Positions 39,408 to 58,278 are shown, numbered from the stretch's first letter. The stretch: DNA of 64,000 nucleotides from an uncultured Pseudomonadota bacterium (GCA_902763535.1 CACWSG010000001.1:51957-115956), one strand, 5' to 3'. Program-made: numbers and translations. The notes: generated from the sequence alone by a model not told the origin.

Positions 39408-39482
39408 GGTCCCATCGTCTAATGGTTAGGACATCACCCTTTCACGGTGGTAATATGGGTTCGAATCCCGTTGGGATCACCA
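39408..39482 (+). tRNA. tRNA-Glu (anticodon TTC); integration site of the downstream island
   Basis: GGTCCCATCGTCTAATGGTTAGGACATCACCCTTTCACGGTGGTAATATGGGTTCGAATCCCGTTGGGATCACCA. Anticodon loop CT-TTC-AC. A Rho-independent terminator follows at 39483-39520. Confidence 0.9.
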
Positions 39483-40990
39483 ATCGCAACACCCTCGATT
39501 TTCGGGGGTGTTTTTTTGTTTAAAGAATCTATCAAATCAAAAGGTTTTCTAAGGTTATAAGAGATTTTCCTATCCTTCATTTGCAAGTTCGAAAGTAAAA
39601 GTTTCAAAATCGCTCTTTTGGTCTCTACTTTCGAACTTTTGAAAATTTGGTAGGCATTATTCCCCAATGAAAGTATTGTTGATATTGCGATAGAGAAGTT
39701 TTTATCAGCCTCGGTCAATAAAGCAGACTTTCCCTCAAGTTCGTATTGTTCTTGTTTAACGTCTTCATTCATATCCCGATATTCTTCGGGCGTAATATGA
39801 CCTTCAAGCAGTAATGACCGCAATCGTTTAATCTTGTCTTGGCAATTGTCATATTTCTGACGAATTGCTCGCACTTCCTTATTATGAGCCTCATTTTGTT
39901 TATTGATGATTTTTTCCATATCAGCCTTAAGATATGGCATAATTTCTTGTGGAACGTGCAAATTCTTTAACTCACCTTCTATTGCCTCTAATGCAACATT
40001 TTCATTAATTTGAGGGTTTTCACAATTGCCTTTGAAATGCGAACACTTCAAATAGATATACTCCTTTCCGCTTGGTTTTGTTTTTTTATAGCTGCTGATA
40101 GTACAGCCACATACGCCGCAAGTCATAAGCCCTCTGAAAATAAAAGGCTCTTCAGTCGCCTTAAACGGTATTTTTTCTTCTGGTTTACGACCGTGCATAA
40201 TATCTTGGCAAGTTTGAAACAATGCAGGAGCAATGAACGTTTCATATTGATGCTTAAATACATTCTCCCTGTATATCATTTCCCCTATGTAAAATTTGTT
40301 GTTCAAAATACGATGAACTGCACTGGTATTTAATGGTTTACCGTTGTATTTACTCGTCAAACCCCATTCTTTACATTGTTTTACCATATCTTTTAATGAA
40401 TATAAGCCTGTTGCATAGCGTTCAAACAGCTTTTGTATAATTGGCGCTCGTTCATTATCAACAATAACATCAGCTTTACCATCTGGTTTTCTAACATTAA
40501 AATATCCTAAAGGAGCTCTATACATACAAAAACCGTGTTCGGCTTGATGATTCATACCACTAACAACGTTATCTCGCAAAGAAAGAACATAGTTTTGTGC
40601 CATAACGACATTTAAGCCTAAAATCGTTAAATCACCAGCTTTTGAATTTTTATCAAGCACCAAATTCTCTTGCACTAAGTGAAGTTCTAATTGACCGCTC
40701 TTACGCATTTCATCAATCATTGTATAGTTTTTGAAGTTACGCATTAAGCGGTCAGTTTTCAAACAAACCAGAGCTATACCACCACGTTGTTTCTTACAAA
40801 AAGCCAATATCTCCATAAAGTGCTTGCGTTCACCACGAGTGGAACTTTCAACCAGTTCAGCATCTTTTATAATATTTAAGCCTTTTCGTTCGCAGTATTG
40901 CTTCAACACTTCTTGCTGATTTTGCAACGAGTAGCCCTCTTGCGATTGCATAGTAGTCGATACACGACGTAATAAAACAGCATTTTTCAT
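39434..40990 (-). CDS. Large serine recombinase (integrase)
   Basis: N-terminal resolvase catalytic domain (VLLRRVSTTMQSQEGYSLQNQ…, catalytic Ser in RVST). Recombinase domain, Cys-containing zinc-ribbon region (CGVCGCT…CSHFKGNC) and coiled-coil. The last ~16 codons are antisense tRNA-Glu sequence. Confidence 0.85.
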   Translation of the reverse strand: MKNAVLLRRVSTTMQSQEGYSLQNQQEVLKQYCERKGLNIIKDAELVESSTRGERKHFMEILAFCKKQRGGIALVCLKTDRLMRNFKNYTMIDEMRKSGQLELHLVQENLVLDKNSKAGDLTILGLNVVMAQNYVLSLRDNVVSGMNHQAEHGFCMYRAPLGYFNVRKPDGKADVIVDNERAPIIQKLFERYATGLYSLKDMVKQCKEWGLTSKYNGKPLNTSAVHRILNNKFYIGEMIYRENVFKHQYETFIAPALFQTCQDIMHGRKPEEKIPFKATEEPFIFRGLMTCGVCGCTISSYKKTKPSGKEYIYLKCSHFKGNCENPQINENVALEAIEGELKNLHVPQEIMPYLKADMEKIINKQNEAHNKEVRAIRQKYDNCQDKIKRLRSLLLEGHITPEEYRDMNEDVKQEQYELEGKSALLTEADKNFSIAISTILSLGNNAYQIFKSSKVETKRAILKLLLSNLQMKDRKISYNLRKPFDLIDSLNKKTPPKIEGVAIGDPNGIRTHITTVKG

Positions 40991-42300: not shown

Positions 42301-43065
42301 ATGCAGTTTATATTAAGGACAACTACTATGACTAACTTCGCAGATAAATTCGAACATAACGCAGTATTACAGTTAAGGAAATTAAATAGAGCTATTGATT
42401 TATATTGCAAGGATATCTTTAGAAAAAATAAACTAATAAGATATGTAAGAAGCGATAATGGATACGGTATGATGCAGCCTATGGCTTTATATAACTTTTC
42501 AGAAATAGCATTTACTCACCTAGAGCCAATTATTGGTGTTGAAAATATTTCAATGTTTACTATAGCCGTTGATACTTTCAATTTTGGGAAAGACAATTGG
42601 GATTTCAATTATCCATTATTTCGTAAAGAAATCAAAAAAATACTAAAAGGTTATGACTACATTGCTAATGTGGCTTTAGATGAATTTCCAAGAGGACGTT
42701 ACTTTGATGAAGGGATATTAATGACACCGCATATACACGGCATATTTTTCAGACCGTTAACTCGTTGGGAAAAAGGTAAAATATCCATAAAAATAAAAAA
42801 ACATTTTCCAGAATATCGAATAAGACCTTTTGTTGTCAGAGAAAAGTTTGATTTAAAATCTGCAATACATTATTCTTTCAAGGCATTATATGGCGGTAAA
42901 ACCACTTATTCTGGTACGTGCGGAAAAAATATTGAAACACCATATAGGAACCTCTTTATAAATTTTTTGCACCTTAAAGCCCTCAAAATATACGATTGTG
43001 CTTTTGCTGGTGGTAAAGGCATTGAAGTGTTAAATAATATTATCAGCGATATTAAAACTAACTAA
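42301..43065 (+). CDS. HUH-superfamily replication initiator (Rep)-like protein
   Basis: HUH motif TPHIHGIFF and downstream Tyr motif IHYSFKALYGGK (YxxK). 254 aa. Confidence 0.5.
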   Translation: MQFILRTTTMTNFADKFEHNAVLQLRKLNRAIDLYCKDIFRKNKLIRYVRSDNGYGMMQPMALYNFSEIAFTHLEPIIGVENISMFTIAVDTFNFGKDNWDFNYPLFRKEIKKILKGYDYIANVALDEFPRGRYFDEGILMTPHIHGIFFRPLTRWEKGKISIKIKKHFPEYRIRPFVVREKFDLKSAIHYSFKALYGGKTTYSGTCGKNIETPYRNLFINFLHLKALKIYDCAFAGGKGIEVLNNIISDIKTN

Positions 43066-43612
43066 CACAACTTAAATAATTATAAACAGTCCTTCGTGAA
43101 ACATTAAATTGTTTGGCGATGGTGGTTATAGGGGTACGATTATTAACCAAGGCTTTTATTTCTTCGGCTTGTTCATTGGTTAGTTTACGTTGCCCACCTT
43201 TATATTTACCTTTGAGTTTAGCCAAAGCAATTCCCTCACGTTGACGCTCCAAGATTAAGTTGCGCTCAAGCTCTGCTACAGCTCCCAACATCGTCATCAT
43301 CATTTTTTGATACGGATCTTGTTTATCGGGGGCAAATATCAAATTTTCTTTATGAAATACAACTTTAGCTCCTTTATTGGTTATTTCTTCGACCAAGTTC
43401 AGCAAATCATTTGTGTTGCGTGCTAATCTATCCATCGAGTGGACATTAACCACATCACCGGCACGAATATTAAGTAACATAGCTTGAAGTTCTGGGCGGT
43501 TAGTGTTTTTACCACTGATTTTTTCGACATATTCCCTATCGCAAGCAACATTTAACAGTTGGCGCTCGGTATTCTGGTCGGTTGTGGAAACTCTCTTGTA
43601 ATTAAACAACAT
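43058..43612 (-). CDS. Small serine recombinase (resolvase/invertase family) with C-terminal HTH
   Basis: MLFNYKRVSTTDQNTERQ… (catalytic Ser). DRLARNTNDLLNLVEEITNKGAKVVF. C-terminal HTH IAKQFNVSRRTVYNYL. 184 aa. Confidence 0.85.
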   Translation of the reverse strand: MLFNYKRVSTTDQNTERQLLNVACDREYVEKISGKNTNRPELQAMLLNIRAGDVVNVHSMDRLARNTNDLLNLVEEITNKGAKVVFHKENLIFAPDKQDPYQKMMMTMLGAVAELERNLILERQREGIALAKLKGKYKGGQRKLTNEQAEEIKALVNNRTPITTIAKQFNVSRRTVYNYLSCVS

Positions 43613-43731: not shown

Positions 43732-44253
43732 TTACACCGCCTCAGCCTTGACAACTATCGTGTCCTCAACTGTCAGGTCATAAATCCTTGGCATATTGCT
43801 CGAACGTAGAAATCGCAAACCGTCAGAATCATTTAAATAAATTCTGTCTGTGGTTATTCGGTCAATCACGCTCCAATGGTCGTGTAGACCTTGTATGCCT
43901 ATAATCACGGCTGTATTCGGCTGTTTTGTTAGTGTCGATATTTTTTTGATGGCTGTTGTCGTGCGAGTTTTATCGTTGAATGGCCTATAATGCGTTAACC
44001 TGATATTGTCCAATTGTGATTGAATAATACCAAGATAATCCTCAACTTGTTCAACTTCTGAGCCTTCTTTATGGACTGCGTTTAATTTACGGTGTTTATA
44101 TAAGTATGCAATTATTTCTTGAAACCAAAATTTTACGTATTTCTTTTTAAAATTCTCCAAACCTTCTGTCGATAACAATGTCGCATTAATTGAGCTATAC
44201 ACACCACAGAGATTGTCGAGATTGCCTTGCGAAAAGTAAATATTCTTCATCAA
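43732..44253 (-). CDS. Stand-alone C39-like (papain-fold, clan CA) peptidase-domain protein
   Basis: Q-x7-CG (QGNLDNLCGVYSSINA), His motif GLHDHWSVI and downstream Asp. Paralogous to 56398..56982. Confidence 0.5.
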   Translation of the reverse strand: MMKNIYFSQGNLDNLCGVYSSINATLLSTEGLENFKKKYVKFWFQEIIAYLYKHRKLNAVHKEGSEVEQVEDYLGIIQSQLDNIRLTHYRPFNDKTRTTTAIKKISTLTKQPNTAVIIGIQGLHDHWSVIDRITTDRIYLNDSDGLRFLRSSNMPRIYDLTVEDTIVVKAEAV

Positions 44254-44573
44254 TATTCATCTCCTCTCATTATGGTTAGCACTCTGTTGGTAACGCTCTC
44301 ATCGGATATGTCGGGACTGAGGCATAAGTAGTCTAGGTCGTAGTAATCAATCTTCCAGAAGTATGTTGCCCCTTTGAAGTCTATAGCCCCGAAGTCGTGT
44401 TCTTGATTAGGATCATTATTTGCAGTGAATTTATCAAAAGTGCGAACTCGGTTTAACAGCTCAGCACGGTCATTGTCGTTTAACTCGCAAACACCAACTG
44501 TCAACATAACTTTGCCACCAGTGAATGTCTTGCGAAGTTTGTCGTTCAATAGTCGTATTTTACCAACACTCAT
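44250..44573 (-). CDS. Small hypothetical protein with candidate double-glycine leader
   Basis: 107 aa, N-terminus MSVGKIRLLNDKLRKTFTGG-KVM…. The Gly-Gly sits at residues 19-20 with hydrophobics at -4, -12 and -15. Translationally coupled (ATGA overlap) to the C39-like gene. Confidence 0.4.
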   Translation of the reverse strand: MSVGKIRLLNDKLRKTFTGGKVMLTVGVCELNDNDRAELLNRVRTFDKFTANNDPNQEHDFGAIDFKGATYFWKIDYYDLDYLCLSPDISDESVTNRVLTIMRGDEY

Positions 44574-44894: not shown

Positions 44895-45551
44895 TTATTT
44901 CAAATGGTTTAGTACCTCTTTTTTATGTTTATTGAAATAACTGATTATTTCTTGAGCAAATTGTCTGAATTGTTTTATATCTTCATCGCTTATTGTATCG
45001 GAATCATTTATTGAAACAGTATGTTGACTATCATTATAAGTGTCACAATCACAATTTTTAACAGCTATTAATTTCGATGTTTCTTGTATAATCGCAAAAT
45101 CGTCATTGTCCTGATTATTGATTGAGCTAAAAACACCTAGCTGTTTGTTTTGCCAATACATCACAACAGAAAAATTAATTTCAAAATGTTTATTTATTTC
45201 ATAAGATGCTGTAAATAATGAATAATCGCTTATATCATTTGCTAAATCAAAACAGTTATCTAAATCTGTAATATAAATTATATTATGATTTTCAATATCT
45301 AAGTCATTTACCAGATCTTCCCAAACGGCTTCCCATATTTGACGACACATAATCCAGCCGTCCGTTTTAAACTTCTGCAAAAACACCTTAGCTTGATAAA
45401 AGTTTTGATATTCATCAAACGAAATTTTGCTAGGTACTTCGGTATTGTCGAACATAGCTAAAGCTTTTATCGTATTATCTTTGCAAACTTTTTTTAAATT
45501 TTCAGGTATTTGTATCATTTTTAACACTCCCAATATAAAATTTTGTTCCAC
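44895..45551 (-). CDS. Hypothetical protein (218 aa), acidic
   Basis: Long ORF, overlaps the upstream gene by 31 nt (operon). No recognisable motif. Confidence 0.4.
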   Translation of the reverse strand: MEQNFILGVLKMIQIPENLKKVCKDNTIKALAMFDNTEVPSKISFDEYQNFYQAKVFLQKFKTDGWIMCRQIWEAVWEDLVNDLDIENHNIIYITDLDNCFDLANDISDYSLFTASYEINKHFEINFSVVMYWQNKQLGVFSSINNQDNDDFAIIQETSKLIAVKNCDCDTYNDSQHTVSINDSDTISDEDIKQFRQFAQEIISYFNKHKKEVLNHLK

Positions 45552-46306
45552 AATGAAGACCTGTAACGTTTCATATCTTCATCTTCAACCAGTCCGTCTA
45601 GGTTCTGTTCCCATAATTGCATAACATCACACCAGAGTATATTTTTCCAAGATTCTTTTTTTTCTTTTTTTGCATCAATATCTTTTTGAATATTTTTAAT
45701 AGTGATAACGACGAAGGTCAGCTCTTTACCTTTGGCAATTTTCTTCATCTGTTCCTCATAAACGCTTAATTCATTACCATCAATTACGGCATCAAATTTT
45801 ACTTCAATACATAAAGCTCCGCTATTCCATATAATTGTATTATCAATACGTTTTCGCCTTTTTTTCTTATCTTTGACATTTTTAGTAAGAACTTCGCAAG
45901 CACAATAATAACCATCTTTGGGAAGTTCTTTATTTTGATTTAATAATTTAAAAATAGCCTGTAAAAATGCTTTGCAGCTTTGTTGATTTTCGAGTAAAAA
46001 ATTTGATAATGCTTTTGTAAATTGTGGTTCTTTCAAATTTAAATAGCGATATAAAGGCTTATAACGGAATGAATGATGCGCTGTATAATTACCTAAAAAT
46101 GGAAAATCACTTAATAGATCTTCATATGTTTGATAACCGATTTTAGCATACTGCTTTGCTATATAATCGTGATAGTCTTGCAAAAACGATTTGACTTTTA
46201 AGTGATCCCCATAAAATGCTTGAATATATGGCAGACTTTGATGATATACATCATTACAATATACTTCGGATAATTGTGAAAAATATTTTTCTTTACTCAT
46301 TATCAT
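45521..46306 (-). CDS. Hypothetical protein with PD-(D/E)xK-like nuclease motif
   Basis: …IDNTIIWNSGALCIEVKFD… (D…E-V-K), embedded in predicted beta strands. 261 aa. Confidence 0.4.
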   Translation of the reverse strand: MIMSKEKYFSQLSEVYCNDVYHQSLPYIQAFYGDHLKVKSFLQDYHDYIAKQYAKIGYQTYEDLLSDFPFLGNYTAHHSFRYKPLYRYLNLKEPQFTKALSNFLLENQQSCKAFLQAIFKLLNQNKELPKDGYYCACEVLTKNVKDKKKRRKRIDNTIIWNSGALCIEVKFDAVIDGNELSVYEEQMKKIAKGKELTFVVITIKNIQKDIDAKKEKKESWKNILWCDVMQLWEQNLDGLVEDEDMKRYRSSLWNKILYWEC

Positions 46307-46697: not shown

Positions 46698-47360
46698 ATG
46701 GATTTAGACAAACACGCAACCCAATATTTGGATATTATGAATAAACAGGCTCAGGAATTATCTTGTTATGAACAGCAATTTGATAATGCTGATTCTCATA
46801 TGCTGCAACACGTAATTGACTATTCGAAAATGGCTATCAAATCACTTTTTTTATTAAATGGAACGGCAGCCATTTCTGTATTTACTTTATTTACATCTTC
46901 ATCACTAAATATTCAAAAAGTTTTTCAGCCATTACTTGATGCGGTTACAATATTTTCTTGGGGTGCTGTTATTTCAGTTATATGTATTTTTTTAGCCTAT
47001 GCGGCGCAAAAATTTTATCAAGATGAGTGTGCTTGTATAGGAAGAGAGAAAATATTATATATCAAATTAAGACAATCTGAAGAAAAACGGATATTTTTTG
47101 CAAAGGAAAAAGTATTGAATAAAGAAATACCAGTTGAAAAAGATATAGAAGCCTTAGAAAATGAGGCAGAGGATACTAAAAAACAGAGGGATTTAGAAGA
47201 AAAAAAGGAAAAAAGATATGGCAAACTTGGAGATATTTTTACAGGTATCGCTATAATAGGAGTCATCTGTTCATTGTGTTTATTTATATTCGGCGTCTAT
47301 AAAGTAAAAAACGAATTTGTTCAATATACTAAGGACACAATTACTGAACAAAATAAGTAA
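46698..47360 (+). CDS. Membrane protein with two TM helices and charged coiled-coil tail
   Basis: TMs AISVFTLFTSS and GAVISVICIFLAYAA, a K/E-rich helical segment, and a C-terminal TM IAIIGVICSLCLFIFGV. Confidence 0.45.
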   Translation: MDLDKHATQYLDIMNKQAQELSCYEQQFDNADSHMLQHVIDYSKMAIKSLFLLNGTAAISVFTLFTSSSLNIQKVFQPLLDAVTIFSWGAVISVICIFLAYAAQKFYQDECACIGREKILYIKLRQSEEKRIFFAKEKVLNKEIPVEKDIEALENEAEDTKKQRDLEEKKEKRYGKLGDIFTGIAIIGVICSLCLFIFGVYKVKNEFVQYTKDTITEQNK

Positions 47361-47409: not shown

Positions 47410-49899
47410 TTACGATATTTCATTCTTATTTTGATTTTTTGCTTCTTTTTCTATGGCTTTTTCTACTTTTTCAAATCCACTACAACCATCTTTAATAGCT
47501 TCATTCCAGTTAAAATATGCAACCCCTATATTTACCTTATTCCAAATATCTGTTAGATAATCTCTGAAAAGAATAGATTTACGGTATCTATCTTCAATTT
47601 TAAATGACTGAATTAGAGGAAATATTTCATCTCGAGTTATTGTATCCAAAATAGGCGTATCAATCGAAACCGCATCTAAATATGAAAACTCACCTATCCA
47701 CTTATATAAATGATATACACCTATACTTGTAACTCTAAATCCTTCTGGAATATCTCCACATAACACACCTGTTTTTCTTTCAAATTCTACCCTTCCAACA
47801 GATTCTATCAATTTTTTATTAGTAAGTCTTCTAATAGAATATTCAATTTGAGGAATTGTGTAACCATATTTTTGCATTTCGGTTATAATGTCTATAAATT
47901 TAACAAAACTATCGGTATCTTTTGTTGAATATTTACTTTCGAGATATGCGACAATTAGCGATGACAAAAAATGCTCTTTAATATCAGGAGATGAAATCTC
48001 AAATAAATTCATTGCTAGTGAAGTATCTTCATTAAAATAAGAGTAATCTCCTAAAATAGCTGCTTTTGAAAATTCGTGCAAAGGAATTAAATAATCATCT
48101 TCTTTACTAAAGGATATGATTTTATCACTATCTACATTAGTATTACTTATAAATTTTGCAATAAAATCCATTACTAATCGAACATTTCCACCTGTAATGT
48201 TTGATAATATTTCTCTTATTTCTTTATTATTTTTTATAGAAAATAAAAGGGATTTAATAAATACGACTATATCGCTCAAATCTAAACTAATATTTTCTAA
48301 AGGATGTATCTTTGTATTGCCTTGTGCTATTTTTAACGCAAATTCAAGACGTTTAGCCACAACTGTTTCTATCCTTGGTGGAAGTATAGTAAATACACGT
48401 TGAGTATATCCAGACAAAGAGCGCCCTCTCATTTTTGATTGATAAAAGGTTTCTGGGCGTAACGCAATAAAAGTCATCGCTTTCCATCCAGAAGCAAGTT
48501 CTTGAGCTATAACAAAAGCTTCATCCTGTATGTCTGTAGTCCTTTGATCCGCATTATCAATAGTAATGATAATTTGTTTTTTATGAGCTTTGGCTATATG
48601 CTCTATTGCTTTACACAAATGGCTAGATTTATCTGAGGTTAATTTATCAAGATATGAGATAAGTTTTTCATTATATAATTTTGGATTCTGCTGCAATAAA
48701 TCTTTATAAATGCCATTTTCAAATCTCTTTATTTCAGAATGATAAATACCTTTTACAAAATTTGAAGAATAAATATCTATTTTGTGATTGTCCAAAAGTT
48801 GCTTTTCTATATCTAGCAATATAAAAGATTTTAAATCATTCGATAAAGTACCACTATCCCCTAAATCAATATATAAATACAGTGATTTTTCAAACTCTTC
48901 TTTAGCATTTAAATATTTTAAACTTTTAAGAAAGCTTGTCTTTCCAACTCCTACATCTCCTATTACTACAATAGGTCTCTTTGATAAAGCCTCAGCGTAT
49001 ATCTTATCAGAGAGAAGACCTTGTTTTTTATTTTTTTGCATTAAGCATTCTATATTCGTATCGCTATCCTGCGGAAACAAGTGAGCATAACGTTTGGATA
49101 AAATATCTTTACTAATAAGGGCATCTTGAGATAAGGCTCCACTTTGGCAATAGCATTCCTGAAAAAATTCTTCTTCAATTTCTGGAGAAGTTATCAAATC
49201 TTGTAGTAATAATTCAGATAAAATTTCTAAACTTTTTTGATTGTCATTTTTATATCTTATATCTCGATAATTTAGAATATATTGAGATAGTTTACTAGGT
49301 AAAAATTTTCTTTCACTTGCTATAAAAAAGTCATATAGATTTCTATCTTTAATTCCGTAAATTGAAAGGTATTGCCATACAAGCTGGAAATTTGTTAATA
49401 AATCATCTTTGTTTCTTATAATAAATGCATCCCCATCAAGAGGAGGAATACCATCTCGTCGTGATGCTAAAAAGGCTATAATTTGGTATGAATTTATAAT
49501 AACTGCAAACTCGACACCTCGTTTAGAACAATAATCAAATACTTGATTAACGGCATCTTTAGCGGCAGAACTTGTTTTTATAATTGATTGTATAGAACAG
49601 ATATATTTCTCTCTTCCGTTTGATGGAAAATCAAATTGTATACTATCTTTTTTAGCTTCAACAATACAACATTTAGGATGTCCTAGTTCATAATCGGTAT
49701 AGTCTCCATTGTGATATTTTTCAGTTTCAATATTTTCTTTATTCCAGCCTAGACAATATACCAAAAAATCATCTATAAACTGAAACCTAGTATCTTCTTC
49801 TGTCCAATTCCAAGAAGCTTTAGTGCTTTCTTCGACTAAGGCTTTTAGGTTCTCTAGACCTATCTTCATATCGTTCACATTACTTATAAAATTTGCCAC
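47410..49899 (-). CDS. Fusion protein: N-terminal HsdR-N/Mrr-like PD-(D/E)xK nuclease domain plus P-loop NTPase (STAND/AAA-like), with a long C-terminal region
   Basis: Nuclease motif …DYTDYELGHPKCCIVEAKK…. Walker A IVVIGDVGVGKTSFLK. Walker B-like QIIITIDNADQ. 829 aa and extremely AT-rich. Directly downstream, on the same strand, of the m5C methyltransferase. Confidence 0.55.
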   Translation of the reverse strand: MANFISNVNDMKIGLENLKALVEESTKASWNWTEEDTRFQFIDDFLVYCLGWNKENIETEKYHNGDYTDYELGHPKCCIVEAKKDSIQFDFPSNGREKYICSIQSIIKTSSAAKDAVNQVFDYCSKRGVEFAVIINSYQIIAFLASRRDGIPPLDGDAFIIRNKDDLLTNFQLVWQYLSIYGIKDRNLYDFFIASERKFLPSKLSQYILNYRDIRYKNDNQKSLEILSELLLQDLITSPEIEEEFFQECYCQSGALSQDALISKDILSKRYAHLFPQDSDTNIECLMQKNKKQGLLSDKIYAEALSKRPIVVIGDVGVGKTSFLKSLKYLNAKEEFEKSLYLYIDLGDSGTLSNDLKSFILLDIEKQLLDNHKIDIYSSNFVKGIYHSEIKRFENGIYKDLLQQNPKLYNEKLISYLDKLTSDKSSHLCKAIEHIAKAHKKQIIITIDNADQRTTDIQDEAFVIAQELASGWKAMTFIALRPETFYQSKMRGRSLSGYTQRVFTILPPRIETVVAKRLEFALKIAQGNTKIHPLENISLDLSDIVVFIKSLLFSIKNNKEIREILSNITGGNVRLVMDFIAKFISNTNVDSDKIISFSKEDDYLIPLHEFSKAAILGDYSYFNEDTSLAMNLFEISSPDIKEHFLSSLIVAYLESKYSTKDTDSFVKFIDIITEMQKYGYTIPQIEYSIRRLTNKKLIESVGRVEFERKTGVLCGDIPEGFRVTSIGVYHLYKWIGEFSYLDAVSIDTPILDTITRDEIFPLIQSFKIEDRYRKSILFRDYLTDIWNKVNIGVAYFNWNEAIKDGCSGFEKVEKAIEKEAKNQNKNEIS

Positions 49900-50056
49900 T
49901 TATTGTCTCCATATAAAACCTAACTGCAAAATATGACATACAAATTAACATAAACATCTAAACAATCAAGAATAAAAACAATTCGCATCATTTTGACGTA
50001 GCTTGGAAATTGGACAGATTAACAATTGCACAAGTACTAAATTTTATACCTGAGTG

Positions 50057-51289
50057 TTACTCTGCAGCCATTTCTAGTTGCAGTCCATTTGTCATTTTTT
50101 CATTTAAACAATCCAACATTTCAATTAAGCAACACCCTATATGATAACTTAAATTAACCGGAACAGCATTACCTATTTGTTTATACTGTGATGACATTGT
50201 TCCTTGAAATTTCCAATTATCAGGAAATGATTGAATTCTTGCATATTCACGAATGGTAAGTGGTCTCGTTTCACTTGGATGACAGCGTTCAGTTTGCTTT
50301 TGAGCTGGTGCGCAAGTCAACGTTAAACTCGGTTCATCCCAAGATAAACGTCTTGCCATACCAGTTTTGCCACCAGATAAATGAAAACTGCCTTTCATAT
50401 ATTCTTTTTGAACATCAATCGGTAAATCTCGCCAATACCCCCCCTCTGGAACCAATGACAATATTTCAGCTTTACGTTTAGGATAGCTTTGACCTTCTGA
50501 TTTAGGACAATCTTTTAACGCAGCTCTTAGTGAAACTGTATAATTTTTCTCTGTTGGAAAGATAAAAGGAATATTCAAATCATTACGAATTGCAATAATT
50601 ATTAATCTTTCTCTTTTTTGCGGCACATCTAAATACTGTGCTCTCAAAACCTTATATTGCACATTATAACCAATTTCTTTCAAGGCATTAACCATTGTTT
50701 TAAGGGTTCTGCCATTATCGTGTTTCAACAATCCTTTAACATTTTCACCAACAGCAATTTTGGGCATTGTTTCTTTAACGCAGCGAGCAAATTCAAAAAA
50801 CAATGTTCCTCTGGTATCTTCAAATCCCATACTTTTACCAGCATAACTGAAAGCTTGACAAGGAAATCCTGCTTGAACTATATCGACTTTACCTTTCCAA
50901 GGAGAAAAATCTACATTATGGACATCTTCGTGAATTATGTTAGTTCCTTTAGGAAAATTATGTTGCAAAGTTGCGACACAATCTTTATCTATTTCGTTTA
51001 GTAAGATGTGTCGAATACCTGCATTTTCAAACCCAAGAGCTGTTCCTCCAGCTCCTGCAAATAGTTCTATCGCTGTATAAGGAGACTTAAGTTTGGATTC
51101 CAACACTTTGAACTCTTCATCGGATTTATTATTTAATTTATCCAATAAGGCAAAAACTTCGTCATCATTGAACATACGATGATTTTTATCAGAACGTTCT
51201 GCCTTTATTAATCCTTTTTTTTCCCAACGTCTAATTGTATCAATAGATAAATTAAGTTTTTTACTTACTTCGTGAATAGATAACCACAT
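50057..51289 (-). CDS. DNA (cytosine-5)-methyltransferase with N-terminal MerR-like HTH
   Basis: Motif I ELFAGAGGTALGF, IV GFPCQAFSYAGK, VI ENVKGLL, VIII QKRERLIIIA, X QIGNAVPV. N-terminus MWLSIHEVSKKLNLSIDTIRRWEKKGLI is an HTH. Confidence 0.9.
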   Translation of the reverse strand: MWLSIHEVSKKLNLSIDTIRRWEKKGLIKAERSDKNHRMFNDDEVFALLDKLNNKSDEEFKVLESKLKSPYTAIELFAGAGGTALGFENAGIRHILLNEIDKDCVATLQHNFPKGTNIIHEDVHNVDFSPWKGKVDIVQAGFPCQAFSYAGKSMGFEDTRGTLFFEFARCVKETMPKIAVGENVKGLLKHDNGRTLKTMVNALKEIGYNVQYKVLRAQYLDVPQKRERLIIIAIRNDLNIPFIFPTEKNYTVSLRAALKDCPKSEGQSYPKRKAEILSLVPEGGYWRDLPIDVQKEYMKGSFHLSGGKTGMARRLSWDEPSLTLTCAPAQKQTERCHPSETRPLTIREYARIQSFPDNWKFQGTMSSQYKQIGNAVPVNLSYHIGCCLIEMLDCLNEKMTNGLQLEMAAE

Positions 51290-51376
51290 TATTAATCTCC
51301 TTAATTAACTGAATACAATATAAAATAACCCCTGCATATATGCAAGGGTTATTTTTAAGATATTAAATCAATATAA

Positions 51377-52087
51377 TTAATTAACTGATTCTTCTATTTC
51401 TTGAGCTAAACTGTCTATTGCATCTTCAATAATAGCTGTACCATCAATCTCATTCGCAACTTCGGCAATATTATTAATCAATGCTTCATAAAAGTCTTCA
51501 TCACCTGTCAATCTATACCAGAATTCTTTACCTGCATAGACGGGATTAGACTTATTTATGGTTTTATACATTGTTGATAAATCTTCATTACTACCATAAA
51601 AGACCCCAACAACACAGTCAACATCAGGATTGAAATCTCTTAAACCATTTGTTCGTGCTAAATTTCGGATTGCTTGGAAATGGTTTAATATTGTTGTAAT
51701 ATCATCCTTATTTATAGTATTTGGACCAGCCTTAATCTGGCAATATTTGTGTCTTCCATCAACTTGATCTGTGAATTCAATATCAATACCAGATGTTGTT
51801 GAGGCAAAACCATTTAAAACGTCTTTGCAAAAAGATTGCATCTGAGTACCAAAAATAGTATTTATCGATGTTCCTAAAACTCGAGGATAAATCAAAGCCT
51901 TTGCAATGTTTTTACTATCAGAATTGCCAAAAGCAAAATTTGCTAAATATTTCTGTAAAAAAGGATTAGGATTGAATTCCTTTAAGTGTTTAGCTTCTTC
52001 AGTTTTCTTTTTATGATTCTCAACAATATTGTCTCTAAAAAATTGTTTGGCTTTTTGCAGTATAAGTTGTTTTTCCTCTGGGGTCAT
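51377..52087 (-). CDS. Putative type II restriction endonuclease, cognate of the adjacent m5C MTase
   Basis: 236 aa from internal Met with GGAGA RBS. Candidate PD…(D/E)xK: GIDIEFTDQVDGRHKYCQIK. Position and orientation are typical of an R-M pair. Confidence 0.45.
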   Translation of the reverse strand: MTPEEKQLILQKAKQFFRDNIVENHKKKTEEAKHLKEFNPNPFLQKYLANFAFGNSDSKNIAKALIYPRVLGTSINTIFGTQMQSFCKDVLNGFASTTSGIDIEFTDQVDGRHKYCQIKAGPNTINKDDITTILNHFQAIRNLARTNGLRDFNPDVDCVVGVFYGSNEDLSTMYKTINKSNPVYAGKEFWYRLTGDEDFYEALINNIAEVANEIDGTAIIEDAIDSLAQEIEESVN

Positions 52088-52246
52088 TCTTATTCTCCGT
52101 ATAACAAACACGAGTAACATTTTATCTTAATTACCCAGAAAAGCAAGTTATAATTGGCTTTATTCTACATAATTAAACAGCAAAAAACCAAATTAATCTC
52201 TATATAATTGTAAAATGTATTTAACAAAATCCATAAATAAGAAATA

Positions 52247-52927
52247 TTATTTGTAGCTATTCAAGTCTATTTTATATTTTGAACAAAAATCGTAGATATT
52301 TTTAACTGTATAACACTTAATTCCTGTTTTTAAAGCAAATTCTTTTGCTCTATCATCATAACCATTCTTTACAAAATATGTTAAAATATAAGGATGCACA
52401 ATTGTTTTGTTTTCATCTGAAATATTCTTTATTACCCCTCCAACAAATTGTTTCATAGAGTTAAGACCTATACATTTTTTATCAAAACACTTGACTTGTG
52501 AATAAACGTCTATAATACCTAATATATCATCCTCCAATTTTCCTTTAATATCAATTGTATTAGCATCTTCTTGAGAATTATCAGCAACTTCTTCTACTTT
52601 AATTTTTTCACTTTTATTTAAAATATCACAACAGAGTTTTGCATATGATTTTGGACTTAATAGGTTTAATGCCTTACAAAATTCCATATATTCTTTTTTT
52701 CCTTTTATAACTACAAAATTTTCTTTATCATCAAACTCTACTATTTCATCGTCCTGTTCTCTAAAGAAATTTTCTAATATTCCTAAATGGTTATTAATCT
52801 CATCTTCTGAAATACTATCATCTATTTCTTGAACTACATTTGTAATTATCTTAGCAAAAGATCCAGATGTAGGATTACTACAAGCCATTTTATATATTTC
52901 GTTAAATGAAGGAAATTTGTTAACCAT
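52247..52927 (-). CDS. Hypothetical protein (226 aa) co-transcribed with the ParB-like gene
   Basis: Start codon abuts the upstream gene's stop (52927/52928). No recognisable domain. Several Cys pairs. Confidence 0.4.
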   Translation of the reverse strand: MVNKFPSFNEIYKMACSNPTSGSFAKIITNVVQEIDDSISEDEINNHLGILENFFREQDDEIVEFDDKENFVVIKGKKEYMEFCKALNLLSPKSYAKLCCDILNKSEKIKVEEVADNSQEDANTIDIKGKLEDDILGIIDVYSQVKCFDKKCIGLNSMKQFVGGVIKNISDENKTIVHPYILTYFVKNGYDDRAKEFALKTGIKCYTVKNIYDFCSKYKIDLNSYK

Positions 52928-54064
52928 TTAATTATCCTTAAGTTTTTTAATTGCCATTATCTTTTTTTGCACAAAATCCACCATATCTTCTACCAATTTA
53001 AAATCCTCATCACTAAACGATTGGATCGTTATAAAAGGCATAATATCAAACTCTGTTTTTAAATTTTCAATAGCCATTTTCCAATTATTATTGGGTTTTG
53101 AATTTTTAATTTCAAACTCTATCTCTTCTAATGTTTTATCTGTAGATAAAAAACTTTGATAAAACTTTGTATTTTCTTCTCTTAATAAATTAGATAATTT
53201 TCTCATACTTTTAGCTTCTGATAATTTTGGTGAATTATTTTCTCCTGTTGTTTCATTATACTTTCCTTTCATCCAAGAAATAAGCAATTCCAAATTATCT
53301 TTATTTAAACACTCAAAAGGATCATCTTGTATATCTAACCATTTTCTAATATTAGGACTTTTCATTGCTTCTTCAAAATAACTGTAATTATCAGGCGTAA
53401 ACGAAACATCTGTATCACCCTCAAGACTATTTGCCATTTCAAATAATTTCAGTGATCTTTTAGATTGCTTAACGGTTGCTTTTGTTATTCCCAACATATT
53501 ACTTATCTCTTCGTCAGAAATTTTATCTTTTGTTAATTTATTAATTAAAAGTGCTTTCTGATATGCTCCCCAAGATTTAACTCCTGATATATGCCTTATT
53601 CCAGGAATCAGCATATTATACGAAGCTTCTTTATCTTTATTGTCAACTAACAAAACATCTATGTTTTCCAAATCATTTTTCTCTTCTTTTGATAATGTAA
53701 TTTTTCCAACATTTTCCAAGTTTATTATAGATTTCAAAGCCGCAATTCTTCTATTACCTTCTATAACTACATATTTATTTTCAAATCCATTTATAGGTCT
53801 TACAACTACTTTATCTATAGGAAGAAAACCTACCTCAAGTATATTATCTCTTAAAGAAGATACTTCAAAAGATGGTAACAACATACGTTTTAACGTTTCT
53901 TCTTGAACTTTATCTTCTATTATTCTGTTTTCAGGAACTACGTAATTTTCCATATTAATCTCTAAAAAACGAGGATTATTAGGATCTAAATATAGATCAT
54001 TTAAGGCAATTGTTTTTTGTTTGAATTCATCTCTAGAAAAAGTTGTCATAATTACGCCTTCCAT
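52928..54064 (-). CDS. ParB/Srx-fold N-terminal domain protein with central HTH
   Basis: ParB box VVIEGNRRIAALKSI. HTH ISNMLGITKATVKQSKRSL. Long helical C-terminal region. 378 aa. No parA partner nearby. Confidence 0.55.
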   Translation of the reverse strand: MEGVIMTTFSRDEFKQKTIALNDLYLDPNNPRFLEINMENYVVPENRIIEDKVQEETLKRMLLPSFEVSSLRDNILEVGFLPIDKVVVRPINGFENKYVVIEGNRRIAALKSIINLENVGKITLSKEEKNDLENIDVLLVDNKDKEASYNMLIPGIRHISGVKSWGAYQKALLINKLTKDKISDEEISNMLGITKATVKQSKRSLKLFEMANSLEGDTDVSFTPDNYSYFEEAMKSPNIRKWLDIQDDPFECLNKDNLELLISWMKGKYNETTGENNSPKLSEAKSMRKLSNLLREENTKFYQSFLSTDKTLEEIEFEIKNSKPNNNWKMAIENLKTEFDIMPFITIQSFSDEDFKLVEDMVDFVQKKIMAIKKLKDN

Positions 54065-55427: not shown

Positions 55428-55653
55428 ACTATGGTTATTGTCAAGGAATTTTCGAATATTAAAATAAGTCTGCATAGTTTCCGTATAGTACTCCTCTGAG
55501 AGTAAAAGTTCGAGATTCGTTGCGTTATTGTCACCAATTGCAACACTATTGATTTTTGAGGGAATTTTCCTGTTTAATTAATAAAAATAACATCTTGACT
55601 TCAAGATATTATTGTGCAACTTTTTGAATAGCTCAATATCAAGGAGAATTTTT

Positions 55654-56367
55654 ATGAAAAAAATCATTGTTGCTTTATTAGTTTTTTCTGCTTTTATCTG
55701 CCACAATTGCCAAGCGGCAACTTCTTTTTTAACTGAAGATGAAATTCCGACCGGAGCCAAAATCCTCCCCTTGCCCCCCAAACCGGGCGAAGCAGCTTTT
55801 TACAATGATTGGATGCGTTATGAATGGGGCAAAACCATGCGCGATACCGCACGCGGTCAACAGGCCAAAGAAGACGCCGTTCACACTTTGGAATATTTCT
55901 CTAAAATATACTCTGAACCATTCGGTATGACCATTTCACCTGAAACCACACCGGAAATTTCCTCACTTATAGAACGCATACTTGAAACTACTTTTTTGTG
56001 CAACAAAAAATCCAAAAGCCGCATTATGCGTGCCAGACCATTTATGCAATTCAATGAACCAACTCCCGTACCGGAAGACGAAGAAAAATTGCGCACCAAC
56101 TCATCTTATCCCTCAGGACACACTACTATGGGATGGGCAATTGCTCTTGTTTTGGCAGAAATTAATCCTGATCGTCAAGATGAAATTTTGCAACGCGGAT
56201 TTGAATATGGCGAAAGCCGTGTAATCGTCGGTTTTCACTATCAAAGTGATGTTGACCATGCCCGCATAATCACCTCGGCGCTTGTCAACAGATTGCATAC
56301 TAATGATGATTTTCTTCAACAAATGAAAAAAGCGAAGGAAGAATTTTTATCCCACAAATCGCTCTAA
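55654..56367 (+). CDS. Class A non-specific acid phosphatase (PAP2/PhoN family), secreted
   Basis: Signal peptide MKKIIVALLVFSAFICHNCQA. PAP2 motifs KSRIMRARPF, PSGHT, SRVIVGFHYQSDV. AAGGAGA RBS. Confidence 0.85.
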   Translation: MKKIIVALLVFSAFICHNCQAATSFLTEDEIPTGAKILPLPPKPGEAAFYNDWMRYEWGKTMRDTARGQQAKEDAVHTLEYFSKIYSEPFGMTISPETTPEISSLIERILETTFLCNKKSKSRIMRARPFMQFNEPTPVPEDEEKLRTNSSYPSGHTTMGWAIALVLAEINPDRQDEILQRGFEYGESRVIVGFHYQSDVDHARIITSALVNRLHTNDDFLQQMKKAKEEFLSHKSL

Positions 56368-56397
56368 TTTTTACCATAACAGCCCGCAAATTGGCTG

Positions 56398-56982
56398 TTA
56401 TGACAACTGTTTGGCACTTATGAAAAAAATTCCTTCTTTCATAAGCTGGGTTTCTTTTGATGTTTTCTTTTTTCTTCTTGGTTTCCATGCCAAATTTGCG
56501 AAGTTTATCTTCAAAAAATGGTATGAATCTACCAAATAACTGACCGGAAATTTAACTTTTTGGAACACTGTCCAATGATCACCGGTTTTGGGTGTATCAA
56601 CTCTGACAATACAGGAATGATCTTTCCGCAACATCCATTGTCGCAAAAGCTGAAAAGTTTTCCTGAAAGTTAAGTTTTTCCAATCCGGCATGGCTGTAAG
56701 TTTTTTCCATTGTATTAAAATATGATAATTTTCTTTCATATAATCCCGCGCTAAAAGCAAATACTTTTCTTCCAACACGCAGGTAGTGCCGTGATTAACA
56801 ACTTGCTCAATCAAATTGTTATCAATAAGATATTTCATAAAACATCTGAAAAAGGCTTCTTTTTCGCTGCTTGTCATAACCTTAAAAGATGAACAGGCAT
56901 AGCCGACTGCATTTATAACGGCATAAATTCCACAAAAATAATCCAAAGTACCTTGATACGAAATCTGAAATTTTGCAGGCAT
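56398..56982 (-). CDS. Stand-alone C39-like papain-fold peptidase-domain protein (paralog of 43732..44253)
   Basis: QGTLDYFCGIYAVINA and GDHWTVF…YLVDS align with QGNLDNLCGVYSSINA and HDHWSVI…YLNDS in the other copy. Lies 21 bp downstream of guaC on the same strand. Confidence 0.5.
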   Translation of the reverse strand: MPAKFQISYQGTLDYFCGIYAVINAVGYACSSFKVMTSSEKEAFFRCFMKYLIDNNLIEQVVNHGTTCVLEEKYLLLARDYMKENYHILIQWKKLTAMPDWKNLTFRKTFQLLRQWMLRKDHSCIVRVDTPKTGDHWTVFQKVKFPVSYLVDSYHFLKINFANLAWKPRRKKKTSKETQLMKEGIFFISAKQLS

Positions 56983-57003
56983 AATACCTTTTTCCTCTCT
57001 TAG

Positions 57004-58122
57004 CTAACTTTTACCAAAAACTTCATTTAATTGGCGATTGACACGGTAGAATGTTGTGCATTTAGGAATATCTTTCAGTCTGCGCGCACCGATATAAGCC
57101 ATTGTTGAGCGAATTCCACCCAATATCTCTTGAATCACATCTTCAATACTGCCCTTATAAGCCACCTCAACCACTTTTCCCTCCGAAGCACGATAACAAG
57201 CCATACCTCCGAAATGCCTTTCTTGTGCTAATTGTGATGACATCCCGTAAAACAGTTTATATTTCTCTTTCTTTTGAAGCAAACAAGCTTCGCCGGATTC
57301 TTCAGACACAACATTCGTTTGAATTGTCTTTTCAATCAACTCACCGGCCGCTTCATCAGTACCGGCAAACATTCCCCCCAACATCACAAAATCAGCCCCT
57401 GCGCCATAGGCTTTGGCCACATCTCCGGCGCAAGTACAACCGCCATCGGCACAAATAAATCCGTTAACACCGTGTGCGGCATCGGAACATTCCAAAATTG
57501 CTGATAACTGCGGACGTCCGACCCCGGTCAATTTTCGGGTTGTACAAACCGAACCCGGACCGATACCAACCTTGACAACATCAGCACCGCTTAAAATCAA
57601 ATCTTGGGTCATATCGCCGGTAACAATATTACCAACCATAATTAGTATGTCAGGAAACTTATCTCTTACTTCTTTTACAAAATCGGTCAATTTGGGAATG
57701 TAACCATTAGCAATATCTATGCATAATTTATCTATCTTAAAACTTTTATCTGCCAGCAGCGCAAAAAGCCGCTCCTTATCATCTTTCAAACCGGTTGAAA
57801 TAAAGGTATAAGCATTATGAGCACTCTCTTCTTTTTCATAATTTTGGGCAACATACTGATAGTTTTGGCCGTCACTAAAATCGTAATGTTTATGCAAACA
57901 GGTTATGGCTTGATATTTTTGCAAAACATCATTTACCGCAAAAGTTCCGGTTGTCGCCATATTAGCCGCCATAATTCCGCAAGACATAAGATGATGCGGA
58001 TAATACTTAAACTTATATTCTCTGATAACATCGGCTTCTTTGCGCGAATTAAGCGTTGTTCTTTTAGGCTGAAACAAAACATCGCAAAAATCTAATTCTA
58101 TACTATCCTTTATTTGTGTCAT
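57004..58122 (-). CDS. guaC: GMP reductase
   Basis: Collinear with enterobacterial GuaC over the full length: FKDVLxxPKR, IIAANM, CIDxANGY, active-site GIGPGSVCTTR, GADFVMLGGM, FYGMSS, ILGG(L/I)RS. 372 aa. Confidence 0.85.
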   Translation of the reverse strand: MTQIKDSIELDFCDVLFQPKRTTLNSRKEADVIREYKFKYYPHHLMSCGIMAANMATTGTFAVNDVLQKYQAITCLHKHYDFSDGQNYQYVAQNYEKEESAHNAYTFISTGLKDDKERLFALLADKSFKIDKLCIDIANGYIPKLTDFVKEVRDKFPDILIMVGNIVTGDMTQDLILSGADVVKVGIGPGSVCTTRKLTGVGRPQLSAILECSDAAHGVNGFICADGGCTCAGDVAKAYGAGADFVMLGGMFAGTDEAAGELIEKTIQTNVVSEESGEACLLQKKEKYKLFYGMSSQLAQERHFGGMACYRASEGKVVEVAYKGSIEDVIQEILGGIRSTMAYIGARRLKDIPKCTTFYRVNRQLNEVFGKS

Positions 58123-58278
58123 TATATCACCCCGATAAAAACTACATTTATTGAGTCAACTTTAATCATTATGCATATTTTATGCAACTGTTTAATGATT
58201 GTTATTAAAGTTATTGCAATTTTTAATTTTATAATCTTTAATATTTACTGACTTAAAATACCGCACAGGAAAACATCA

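Follow-up and report, generated by a model that had tools for sequence, protein, structure and literature searches.

A block of five genes was analysed in a DNA stretch from an uncultured Pseudomonadota bacterium (GCA_902763535.1 CACWSG010000001.1:51957-115956); the window is this whole 64-kb stretch, and all coordinates count from its first letter. The block (47410-54064) encodes a ParB-like protein of 378 amino acids (aa) and a 226-aa partner, a restriction-modification (R-M) pair, and an 829-aa nuclease-ATPase. An open reading frame (ORF) listing of the window confirmed the five ORFs, each on the minus strand and at the coordinates given by the initial annotation, and the identical five proteins are called, contiguously, in three independent public assemblies of one organism. 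On balance we think it probable that the five genes make up a small defence island carried by an integrative element, in which three independent DNA-targeting modules lie side by side, the role in defence being our interpretation.

Layout of the block and its island

52928-54064, minus strand: 378-aa ParB-like protein (373 aa from the second methionine, as publicly called)
52247-52927, minus strand: 226-aa predicted divergent Mrr-type nuclease (ORF call; hidden Markov model, HMM, of the partner family)
51377-52120, minus strand: 247-aa restriction endonuclease (REase) of the EcoO109I family (236 aa as called in public assemblies)
51322-51355, minus strand: hairpin between the REase stop and the methyltransferase start (terminator scan, RNA fold)
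50057-51289, minus strand: 410-aa 5-methylcytosine (m5C) methyltransferase (MTase; ORF call, Pfam)
47410-49899, minus strand: 829-aa nuclease-ATPase protein (ORF call)
43058-43612: resolvase inside the low-GC stretch
39408-40990 (context span), minus strand: large serine recombinase ORF adjoining tRNA-Glu (Pfam Resolvase, Recombinase, Zn_ribbon_recom)
39408-39482, plus strand: tRNA-Glu(UUC), left island edge (ARAGORN, Rfam)

The block lies in a stretch of low GC content (25-35% across approximately 41-55 kb, compared with 38-43% in the flanks) which, together with the tRNA-Glu and the recombinases, agrees with its earlier placement inside an island. The tRNA-Glu 3' end was not found repeated as an att-type direct repeat, and there was no other convincing island-border repeat; the right border was therefore placed by GC and gene content alone.

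The gaps between the genes had been described as short. This holds for the junction of the 378-aa and 226-aa genes, where a TAA stop is followed directly by ATG (0-nt gap), an abutment which fits the translational coupling suggested by the initial annotation; it does not hold for the others, which measure approximately 126-159 nt (226-aa gene to REase), 87 nt (REase to MTase, containing the hairpin) and 157 nt (MTase to 829-aa gene). With gaps of 87-159 nt at all but the one tight junction, a single operon is not implied. A promoter scan yielded 44 matches against 43.3 in shuffled sequence and was thus uninformative on transcription units.

The 378-aa protein has a ParB-type fold

Pfam returned ParB_N below threshold and nothing more for the 378-aa protein. 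Its best match in PADLOC was PDC-M38A, a candidate model whose 715-position profile was covered at positions 8-357 (1.4e-48), and PD-Lambda-5_A matched at approximately 1e-13 over the first ~150-170 residues of profiles that are 430-500 positions long. An AlphaFold (AF2) model (predicted local distance difference test, pLDDT, 83) resembled KorB, Noc, cytidine tri- or diphosphate (CTP/CDP)-bound ParB and Spo0J in Foldseek (E 2e-6 to 1e-4, ~250 columns), the matched region being the nucleotide-binding N-domain plus a central helix-turn-helix (HTH); the C-terminal ~160 helical residues found no fold match in Foldseek. As judged from the model, the protein has a genuine ParB/KorB/Noc-type fold, and both the PADLOC and the Foldseek matches bear out its initial description as a ParB/Srx-fold protein with an HTH. 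Searches of the PDB by sequence were uninformative for this protein and for the 829-aa protein; a profile search gave solely a designed HTH repeat and a weak match to PadC.

The protein belongs to a family whose members are ~365 aa long, with 435 matches in a clustered database; a search of 1.84 billion representatives gave 436 clusters at 50% identity (E<=1e-30). Three motifs are invariant in a 30-sequence alignment: LDPNNPRF, E-G-N-R-R-x-x-A and PG-RH-SG-K-WG-YQ. One family member of 655 aa, approximately twice the normal length, matches the profile in two stretches and may be a tandem duplication or a fusion.

The 226-aa protein is a predicted Mrr-type nuclease and a conserved partner

By single-sequence search among 5.8 billion proteins, the 226-aa protein recovered itself and one relative of 64% identity, and the Pfam Mrr_cat match was below threshold (E 0.063). 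At every homologous locus inspected, however, a co-directional gene for a protein of 225-310 aa lies right after the ParB-like gene, and in more typical members of the ParB-like family this partner carries Pfam Mrr_cat. Loci were counted as usable when at least 850 nt of downstream sequence was present, which left 57 (53 of 80 metagenomic loci and 4 others); in 51 of these the partner gene lay within +/-60 nt of the ParB-like gene. An HMM built from 43 distinct partners matched the 226-aa protein with an E-value of 1.2e-14, and full-length alignment to a partner annotated with Mrr_cat gave 26% identity and a pairwise E of 4e-11. All 44 sequences compared keep D126 and Q144-x-K146. Because synteny, the partner HMM and the invariant D...QxK all point the same way, the 226-aa protein is predicted to be a very divergent Mrr-type PD-(D/E)xK nuclease, and the initial view that it belonged to no known family has to be abandoned. 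Pfam found no Mrr_N in the protein, and its N-terminal ~90 aa are without a family.

The conserved unit is the pair: no third gene was conserved with it across 80 loci. The pair also occurs on 3 prophage-like contigs. That an apparent orphan became recognisable as a nuclease solely through synteny and profile searches suggests that the approach may suit other orphan genes.

The 829-aa protein joins a nuclease to an ORC/Cdc6-like ATPase

At least 520 matches to the 829-aa protein, at 37-73% identity over the full length, were found in Proteobacteria, Nitrospirota, Acidobacteriota, Bacteroidota, Omnitrophota and others, with members on 27 plasmids (including those of Klebsiella, Shewanella and Rhizobium) and 7 prophage-like contigs; the protein also corresponds to the unannotated PHROG 14719 (1.8e-74). 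A scan of genome contigs with the single sequence gave nothing, whereas an alignment-based scan found homologues. PADLOC matched the protein to no family.

Residues invariant in the alignment mark an N-terminal nuclease (E34...T37-R38, D69-x-E71, E81-A-K83), and the alignment also contains the Walker A (G314DVGVGKTS) and Walker B (D448NADQR) motifs. In an AlphaFold model (pLDDT 80; predicted template modelling score, pTM, 0.72) three modules are recognisable, namely an N-terminal PD-(D/E)xK nuclease of the HsdR-N type, an ORC/Cdc6-like AAA+ ATPase and a winged helix (at ~640-735); a helical lid and a C-terminal helical domain of ~100 residues without repeats complete the protein. It therefore contains the Walker A/B P-loop core, helical lid and C-terminal winged helix by which ORC/Cdc6-STAND ATPases are defined. 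The alignment motifs and the model both uphold the earlier proposal of a PD-(D/E)xK-NTPase fusion.

No neighbour of the 829-aa gene is conserved in 80 genomes, the largest neighbour cluster being present at 5/80 loci. Immediate neighbours include integrases (5), resolvases (3), Mrr (3) and NA-iREase1 (2); McrB_N, a type I methylase, RhuM, transposases and insertion sequence (IS) elements, and housekeeping genes were also seen. The 829-aa gene is a stand-alone single gene which travels with mobile DNA. This raises the alternative that its product is an ATPase of the mobile elements themselves, either a TnsC/IstB-like transposition regulator or an ORC/Cdc6-like replication initiator. We hold this to be very unlikely: neither a transposase nor any other gene is conserved beside it in the 80 genomes, the recombinases that do adjoin it come from different families, its fused N-terminal nuclease has the HsdR-N fold with invariant D and ExK, and it is conserved in full length, as a single gene, across many phyla.

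A more distant clade (24% identity over 94% of the length) is found on many conjugative plasmids of Klebsiella and Enterobacter, encoded alone and labelled 'hypothetical protein', for example at 55651-58155 of the K. pneumoniae IncF plasmid NZ_CP138703.1. In one record the plasmid protein of this clade is annotated as 'Predicted type IV restriction endonuclease'.

The middle pair is a complete type II R-M system

The 410-aa protein matched Pfam DNA_methylase (PF00145; 3e-85), NCBIfam dcm (1.1e-82) and PADLOC MTase_II (1.7e-111), and carries an N-terminal MerR HTH (9.7e-12), through which the MTase is probably autoregulated. The 247-aa protein matched Pfam RE_EcoO109I (PF14511) with an E-value of 2.1e-34 over profile positions 2-196 of 198. 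An REase of a recognised family thus lies beside an MTase in an adjacent, co-directional gene, the arrangement that identifies type II R-M, and by these sequence matches the two genes form an ordinary type II R-M system, complete by itself, as had been thought.

The match of the REase to the crystallised EcoO109I (PDB 1wtd) is weak (E 0.004), so its specificity may differ. In the window there are 5 copies of RGGNCCY, the EcoO109I site, where 17.1 +/- 4.8 would be expected, a depletion of ~3.4-fold which does not by itself establish specificity; the count is at or below that in every one of 100 shuffles, and there are 0 sites inside the island. Such depletion is compatible with an EcoO109I-like specificity of the REase.

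The hairpin in the 87-nt gap (51322-51355) has a perfect 15-bp stem, AAAATAACCCTTGCA TATA TGCAGGGGTTATTTT, followed by a T-rich tract. Its RNA fold has a dG of -25.4 kcal/mol (z -5.05), and 0/200 shuffles were as stable. It could be an intrinsic terminator which separates REase and MTase, or a putative operator for the MerR-type HTH of the MTase.

Three independent modules rather than one system

The initial annotation had described the five genes as one block. Relatives of the ParB-like pair at 74% and 64% identity are present without an R-M pair and without an 829-aa gene, and the 829-aa relatives at 72% and 59% identity adjoin integrase/resolvase, RhuM/Fic, PDDEXK_4 and WYL genes instead. 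Since the outer units stand alone in close relatives and have no conserved neighbours, the block brings together three independent modules; it is a composite and not one system.

The contrary case would be a single multi-component system of the BREX or DISARM kind, in which the R-M core is joined by the ParB/nuclease and nuclease-ATPase units as accessories. In its favour, the five genes are co-directional and remain contiguous in the three assemblies of the same organism, a methylase lies near the ParB pair more often than near the 829-aa family (12/40 against 7/73 loci), and in one case a convergent m5C MTase comes after a homologous pair. These points are outweighed by the closest relatives of each outer unit, which lack the other units, and by the lack of a conserved neighbour across 80 loci in either family; the R-M pair, moreover, needs no addition, and the genes are set apart by the gaps of 87-159 nt and by the strong hairpin between REase and MTase. 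A single system is, in our judgement, highly improbable.

Neighbourhoods of the ParB-like pair

DNA methylase and R-M genes are the commonest neighbours of the ParB-like pair, with recombinases and transposases second. Pfam scans of 145 neighbours returned N6_N4_Mtase (5), N6_Mtase (2), D12 (2), Eco57I (2), an EcoRI methylase (1) and DpnII (1). By a crude motif count, amino-methylase-like proteins were encoded within three genes of 11/58 ParB-pair loci and of 3/74 829-aa loci (Fisher p 0.009 by locus). Among loci with enough flanking sequence, MTase-like genes were present within 4 kb in 12/40 for the ParB pair (~30%) and in 7/73 for the 829-aa family (~10%), and at one locus a homologous ParB-like pair is followed by a convergent m5C methylase. 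Methylases of several families near the pair could reflect either chance clustering in defence islands or functional coupling. The neighbourhood supports a role in conflicts over DNA, as far as a crude comparison between the two families allows. Co-occurrence with defence genes, put forward in the initial annotation as a check, gave a moderate signal: methylases and R-M genes lie near the ParB pair, and many neighbours are housekeeping genes.

The same data bear on a further alternative, that the pair is the restriction arm of an R-M-like system protected by methylation, which attacks unmodified DNA while a neighbouring MTase protects self. Methylases are the commonest category among the 145 neighbours, MTase-like genes lie within 4 kb in 12/40 loci, one pair has a convergent m5C MTase next to it, and P2-like phages carry a distant ParB-like gene together with an m5C MTase. 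On the other hand, approximately 70% of loci with enough flank show no methylase nearby, pairs are found in housekeeping contexts without one, varied methylase families are what co-location in defence islands would produce, and the MTase of the window already has its cognate REase. We consider this alternative doubtful; the association with methylases nevertheless keeps the targeting of unmodified DNA alive beside a type IV-like mode.

In P2-like phages, distant relatives of the ParB-like protein (25-28% identity) are encoded directly after portal gene Q, as in phage Wphi (28705-32684) and phage vB_EcoM-12474III. The cassette comprises the ParB-like gp98, an overlapping gene for gp96 (330-370 aa) and a convergent m5C methyltransferase. 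While gp98 matches PDC-M38A (9e-25) and PD-Lambda-5_A (3e-24), gp96 has no PADLOC match and is unrelated to the Mrr-like partner family, which sets the P2 cassette apart as a more remote arrangement; the cassette has the look of an uncharacterised system related to the PD-Lambda-5 type. A defence hotspot of P2 that surrounds the portal gene was examined by Vassallo et al. (2022, PMC9519451), and the gene-Q cassette seen here may lie in it.

A proposed mode of action and the evidence against it

We propose that the ParB-like subunit would act as a nucleoside triphosphate (NTP)-dependent DNA-binding or clamping sensor through its ParB N-domain and HTH, and that on recognition of foreign, possibly modified, DNA it would license the Mrr-type subunit to cut. 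The pair would then be a split, Mrr-armed analogue of the ParB(DUF262)-HNH type IV enzymes GmrSD, BrxU and SspE. The 829-aa protein might bind or oligomerise on DNA in an ATP-dependent manner through its ORC/Cdc6-like module and winged helix, and then bring its N-terminal HsdR-type nuclease into play; it would thereby work alone, as an NTP-dependent enzyme of restriction or abortive infection. The setting of both units is mobile and rich in R-M genes; from it and from the architecture we infer an anti-phage function, the use of nucleotide, the DNA recognised and the sparing of self DNA. That a nucleotide-gated ParB-fold clamp which licenses a nuclease forms a new class of immunity, and the 829-aa family a new kind of ATP-dependent restriction enzyme, made of one protein and based on an ORC/Cdc6 ring, is a tentative proposal, possible but not one that we would expect to hold in full.

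Several observations weigh against this proposal. In the structural comparison, the ParB-like protein came closest to partition and repressor proteins. The Glu of the ParB GERR box is catalytic for CTP hydrolysis, and at its position the family has Asn104 in 30/30 sequences, a register backed by the GFRR of PadC in a profile alignment; CTP may thus not be hydrolysed in the canonical way, and the ParB-like protein is predicted to bind nucleotide, with hydrolysis uncertain. In the 226-aa protein the helix-1 Glu kept in 42/44 partners is Ala96, and with this residue lost its nuclease activity could be altered. PDC-M38A, the best family match of the ParB-like protein, is covered over half its profile only, and neither the 226-aa protein nor other Mrr-like partners match any PDC-M38 model in PADLOC. 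Many neighbours of both outer families are housekeeping genes, and the defence-island signal, judged by the crude comparison between families, is moderate. The outer units matched no named validated defence system in PADLOC, PHROGs or the literature, which also accords with their initial description as assignable to none, and literature searches found no experimental report on either outer family; those on PDC-M38, on ParB-like, Mrr, anti-phage and CTP, and the DefensePredictor paper yielded no description of either module.

Some of these observations would follow if the ParB-like protein were the element's own KorB/ParB partition protein, or a CTP-dependent silencer, with the 226-aa protein as a degenerate or regulatory partner. 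Its top folds are KorB, Noc, ParB and Spo0J, the HTH domain included, the locus sits on an integrative element with recombinases, and the 226-aa protein has lost one conserved acidic residue. We nonetheless regard this explanation as quite unlikely, because no ParA or other partition ATPase lies near any locus examined, the partner nuclease retains D...QxK in 44/44 sequences, many pairs reside among chromosomal housekeeping genes without a mobile element, and the best family match is a defence-candidate model of PADLOC. Homology to plasmid partition, named at the outset as a finding that would count against defence, was seen in the fold matches to KorB, Noc and ParB, and was not matched by the surroundings, in which ParA is absent and the partner is a nuclease.

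Both outer families are sizeable, span many phyla and lie outside the validated catalogue of PADLOC. The pair would be a compact two-gene system for asking whether a nuclease has come under the control of the ParB nucleotide-switch fold, and the residues to mutate are evident; such a coupling is relevant to present research on CTP switches, and its architectural logic is familiar. If the proposal is true, the CTP-switch paradigm of ParB, KorB and Noc would extend from chromosome biology to nucleic-acid immunity, and the few NTP-dependent restriction enzymes would gain, in the 829-aa protein, one of ORC/Cdc6-based design.

Other genes of the island

A candidate second two-gene module lies at 44895-46306 (minus strand), where a 261-aa PDDEXK_4 nuclease (Pfam 1.3e-6; PADLOC candidate PDC-S26 7.5e-9) overlaps a 218-aa protein without a family by 31 nt; PDDEXK_4 genes also occur near relatives of the 829-aa gene. 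Between this nuclease and the 829-aa gene, on the opposite strand (46698-47360, plus), is a gene for a 220-aa protein in which hydrophobic segments and a charged, coiled-coil-like stretch are visible by eye. It had 0 matches in Pfam, PADLOC and PHROGs, and its position is kept in the other assemblies.

At 43732-44573 (minus strand), a 107-aa DUF3768 protein overlaps by 4 nt a 173-aa protein with CG(V/I)Y...DHW(S/T)V motifs, which has a distant paralogue at 56398-56982 (minus strand; 23% identity, E 6e-9), outside the low-GC stretch. DUF3768 and resolvases also accompany the 74%-identical relative of the ParB-like pair, which suggests related mobile elements.

Comparison with known systems

The outer units were held against PD-Lambda-5, PDC-M38, GmrSD, canonical ParB partition, Avs/NLR, HsdR and McrBC, and the features that define membership were in no case all present. 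GmrSD, BrxU and SspE are type IV enzymes which consist of a ParB-like DUF262 NTPase and a DUF1524 HNH nuclease. They and the pair have in common the coupling of a nucleotide-binding domain of the ParB/Srx superfamily to a DNA endonuclease, and both are stand-alone, often beside methylation-based systems. The [DE]G[QN]xR box, EGNRR in the pair, presumably resembles the DGQQR/DGQHR box of DUF262 and DndB. Unlike GmrSD, the pair is made of two polypeptides, has a Mrr-type PD-(D/E)xK nuclease in place of HNH, and contains an HTH of the KorB/ParB type; DUF262 and DUF1524 had no match in Pfam or PADLOC scans of the block proteins. The parallel is based in part on a description of ParB-superfamily NTPase domains fused to HNH nucleases (PMC12839542).

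The 378-aa protein has the same two-domain fold as the ParB, KorB and Noc clamps and keeps the arginine-rich GxRR box. It differs from them in its nuclease partner, the Asn at the GERR Glu and the unmatched C-terminal domain, and no ParA-like gene or partition locus was adjacent to it in the window or in the homologous loci examined. PDC-M38 provides its best profile. With PD-Lambda-5_A it shares the ParB N-domain; PD-Lambda-5, whose top domain label is 'methyltransferase', was called a compacted RM+Abi (abortive infection) system by its authors (Vassallo et al. 2022, PMC9519451), whereas Pfam finds no methylase domain in the 378-aa protein and PD-Lambda-5_B matches nothing in the block. The 226-aa protein has the D...QxK catalytic core of Mrr, and through its partner family belongs with Mrr_cat; it departs from Mrr in its small size, in lacking the Mrr_N winged helix and in its strict pairing with a ParB-like protein.

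Computational studies have described conflict systems in which ATPases of the ORC/Cdc6 clade are joined to REase domains (PMC10853773, PMC12839542), and the 829-aa protein is like these in its ORC/Cdc6-STAND-type AAA+ ATPase, C-terminal winged helix and PD-(D/E)xK nuclease. The REase is C-terminal in the 'CR-effector' versions described, whereas in the 829-aa protein an REase of active type and HsdR-N character is N-terminal; in the HerA-linked ORC/Cdc6 systems an inactive REase is inserted, unlike in the 829-aa protein, and no HerA/FtsK, KAP or second ORC partner was present in the neighbourhoods of the 80 genomes. McrBC likewise unites an AAA+ NTPase with a PD-(D/E)xK nuclease; the PADLOC models for BrxC, RdrA, McrB and Avs gave no match to the 829-aa protein. 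As for Avs/NLR, NACHT and nSTAND5 were far below threshold and no C-terminal repeat sensor is present, and the SF2 helicase motor that accompanies the nuclease in type I HsdR, with its HsdM and HsdS partners, was not found.

The middle pair corresponds to EcoO109I R-M, with a near end-to-end Pfam match of the REase and an m5C MTase partner, to which an extra MerR-type HTH is added on the MTase here. The outer units are best described as variations on familiar designs, a ParB-superfamily NTPase with a nuclease in the one case, and an AAA+ NTPase with a PD-(D/E)xK nuclease in the other.

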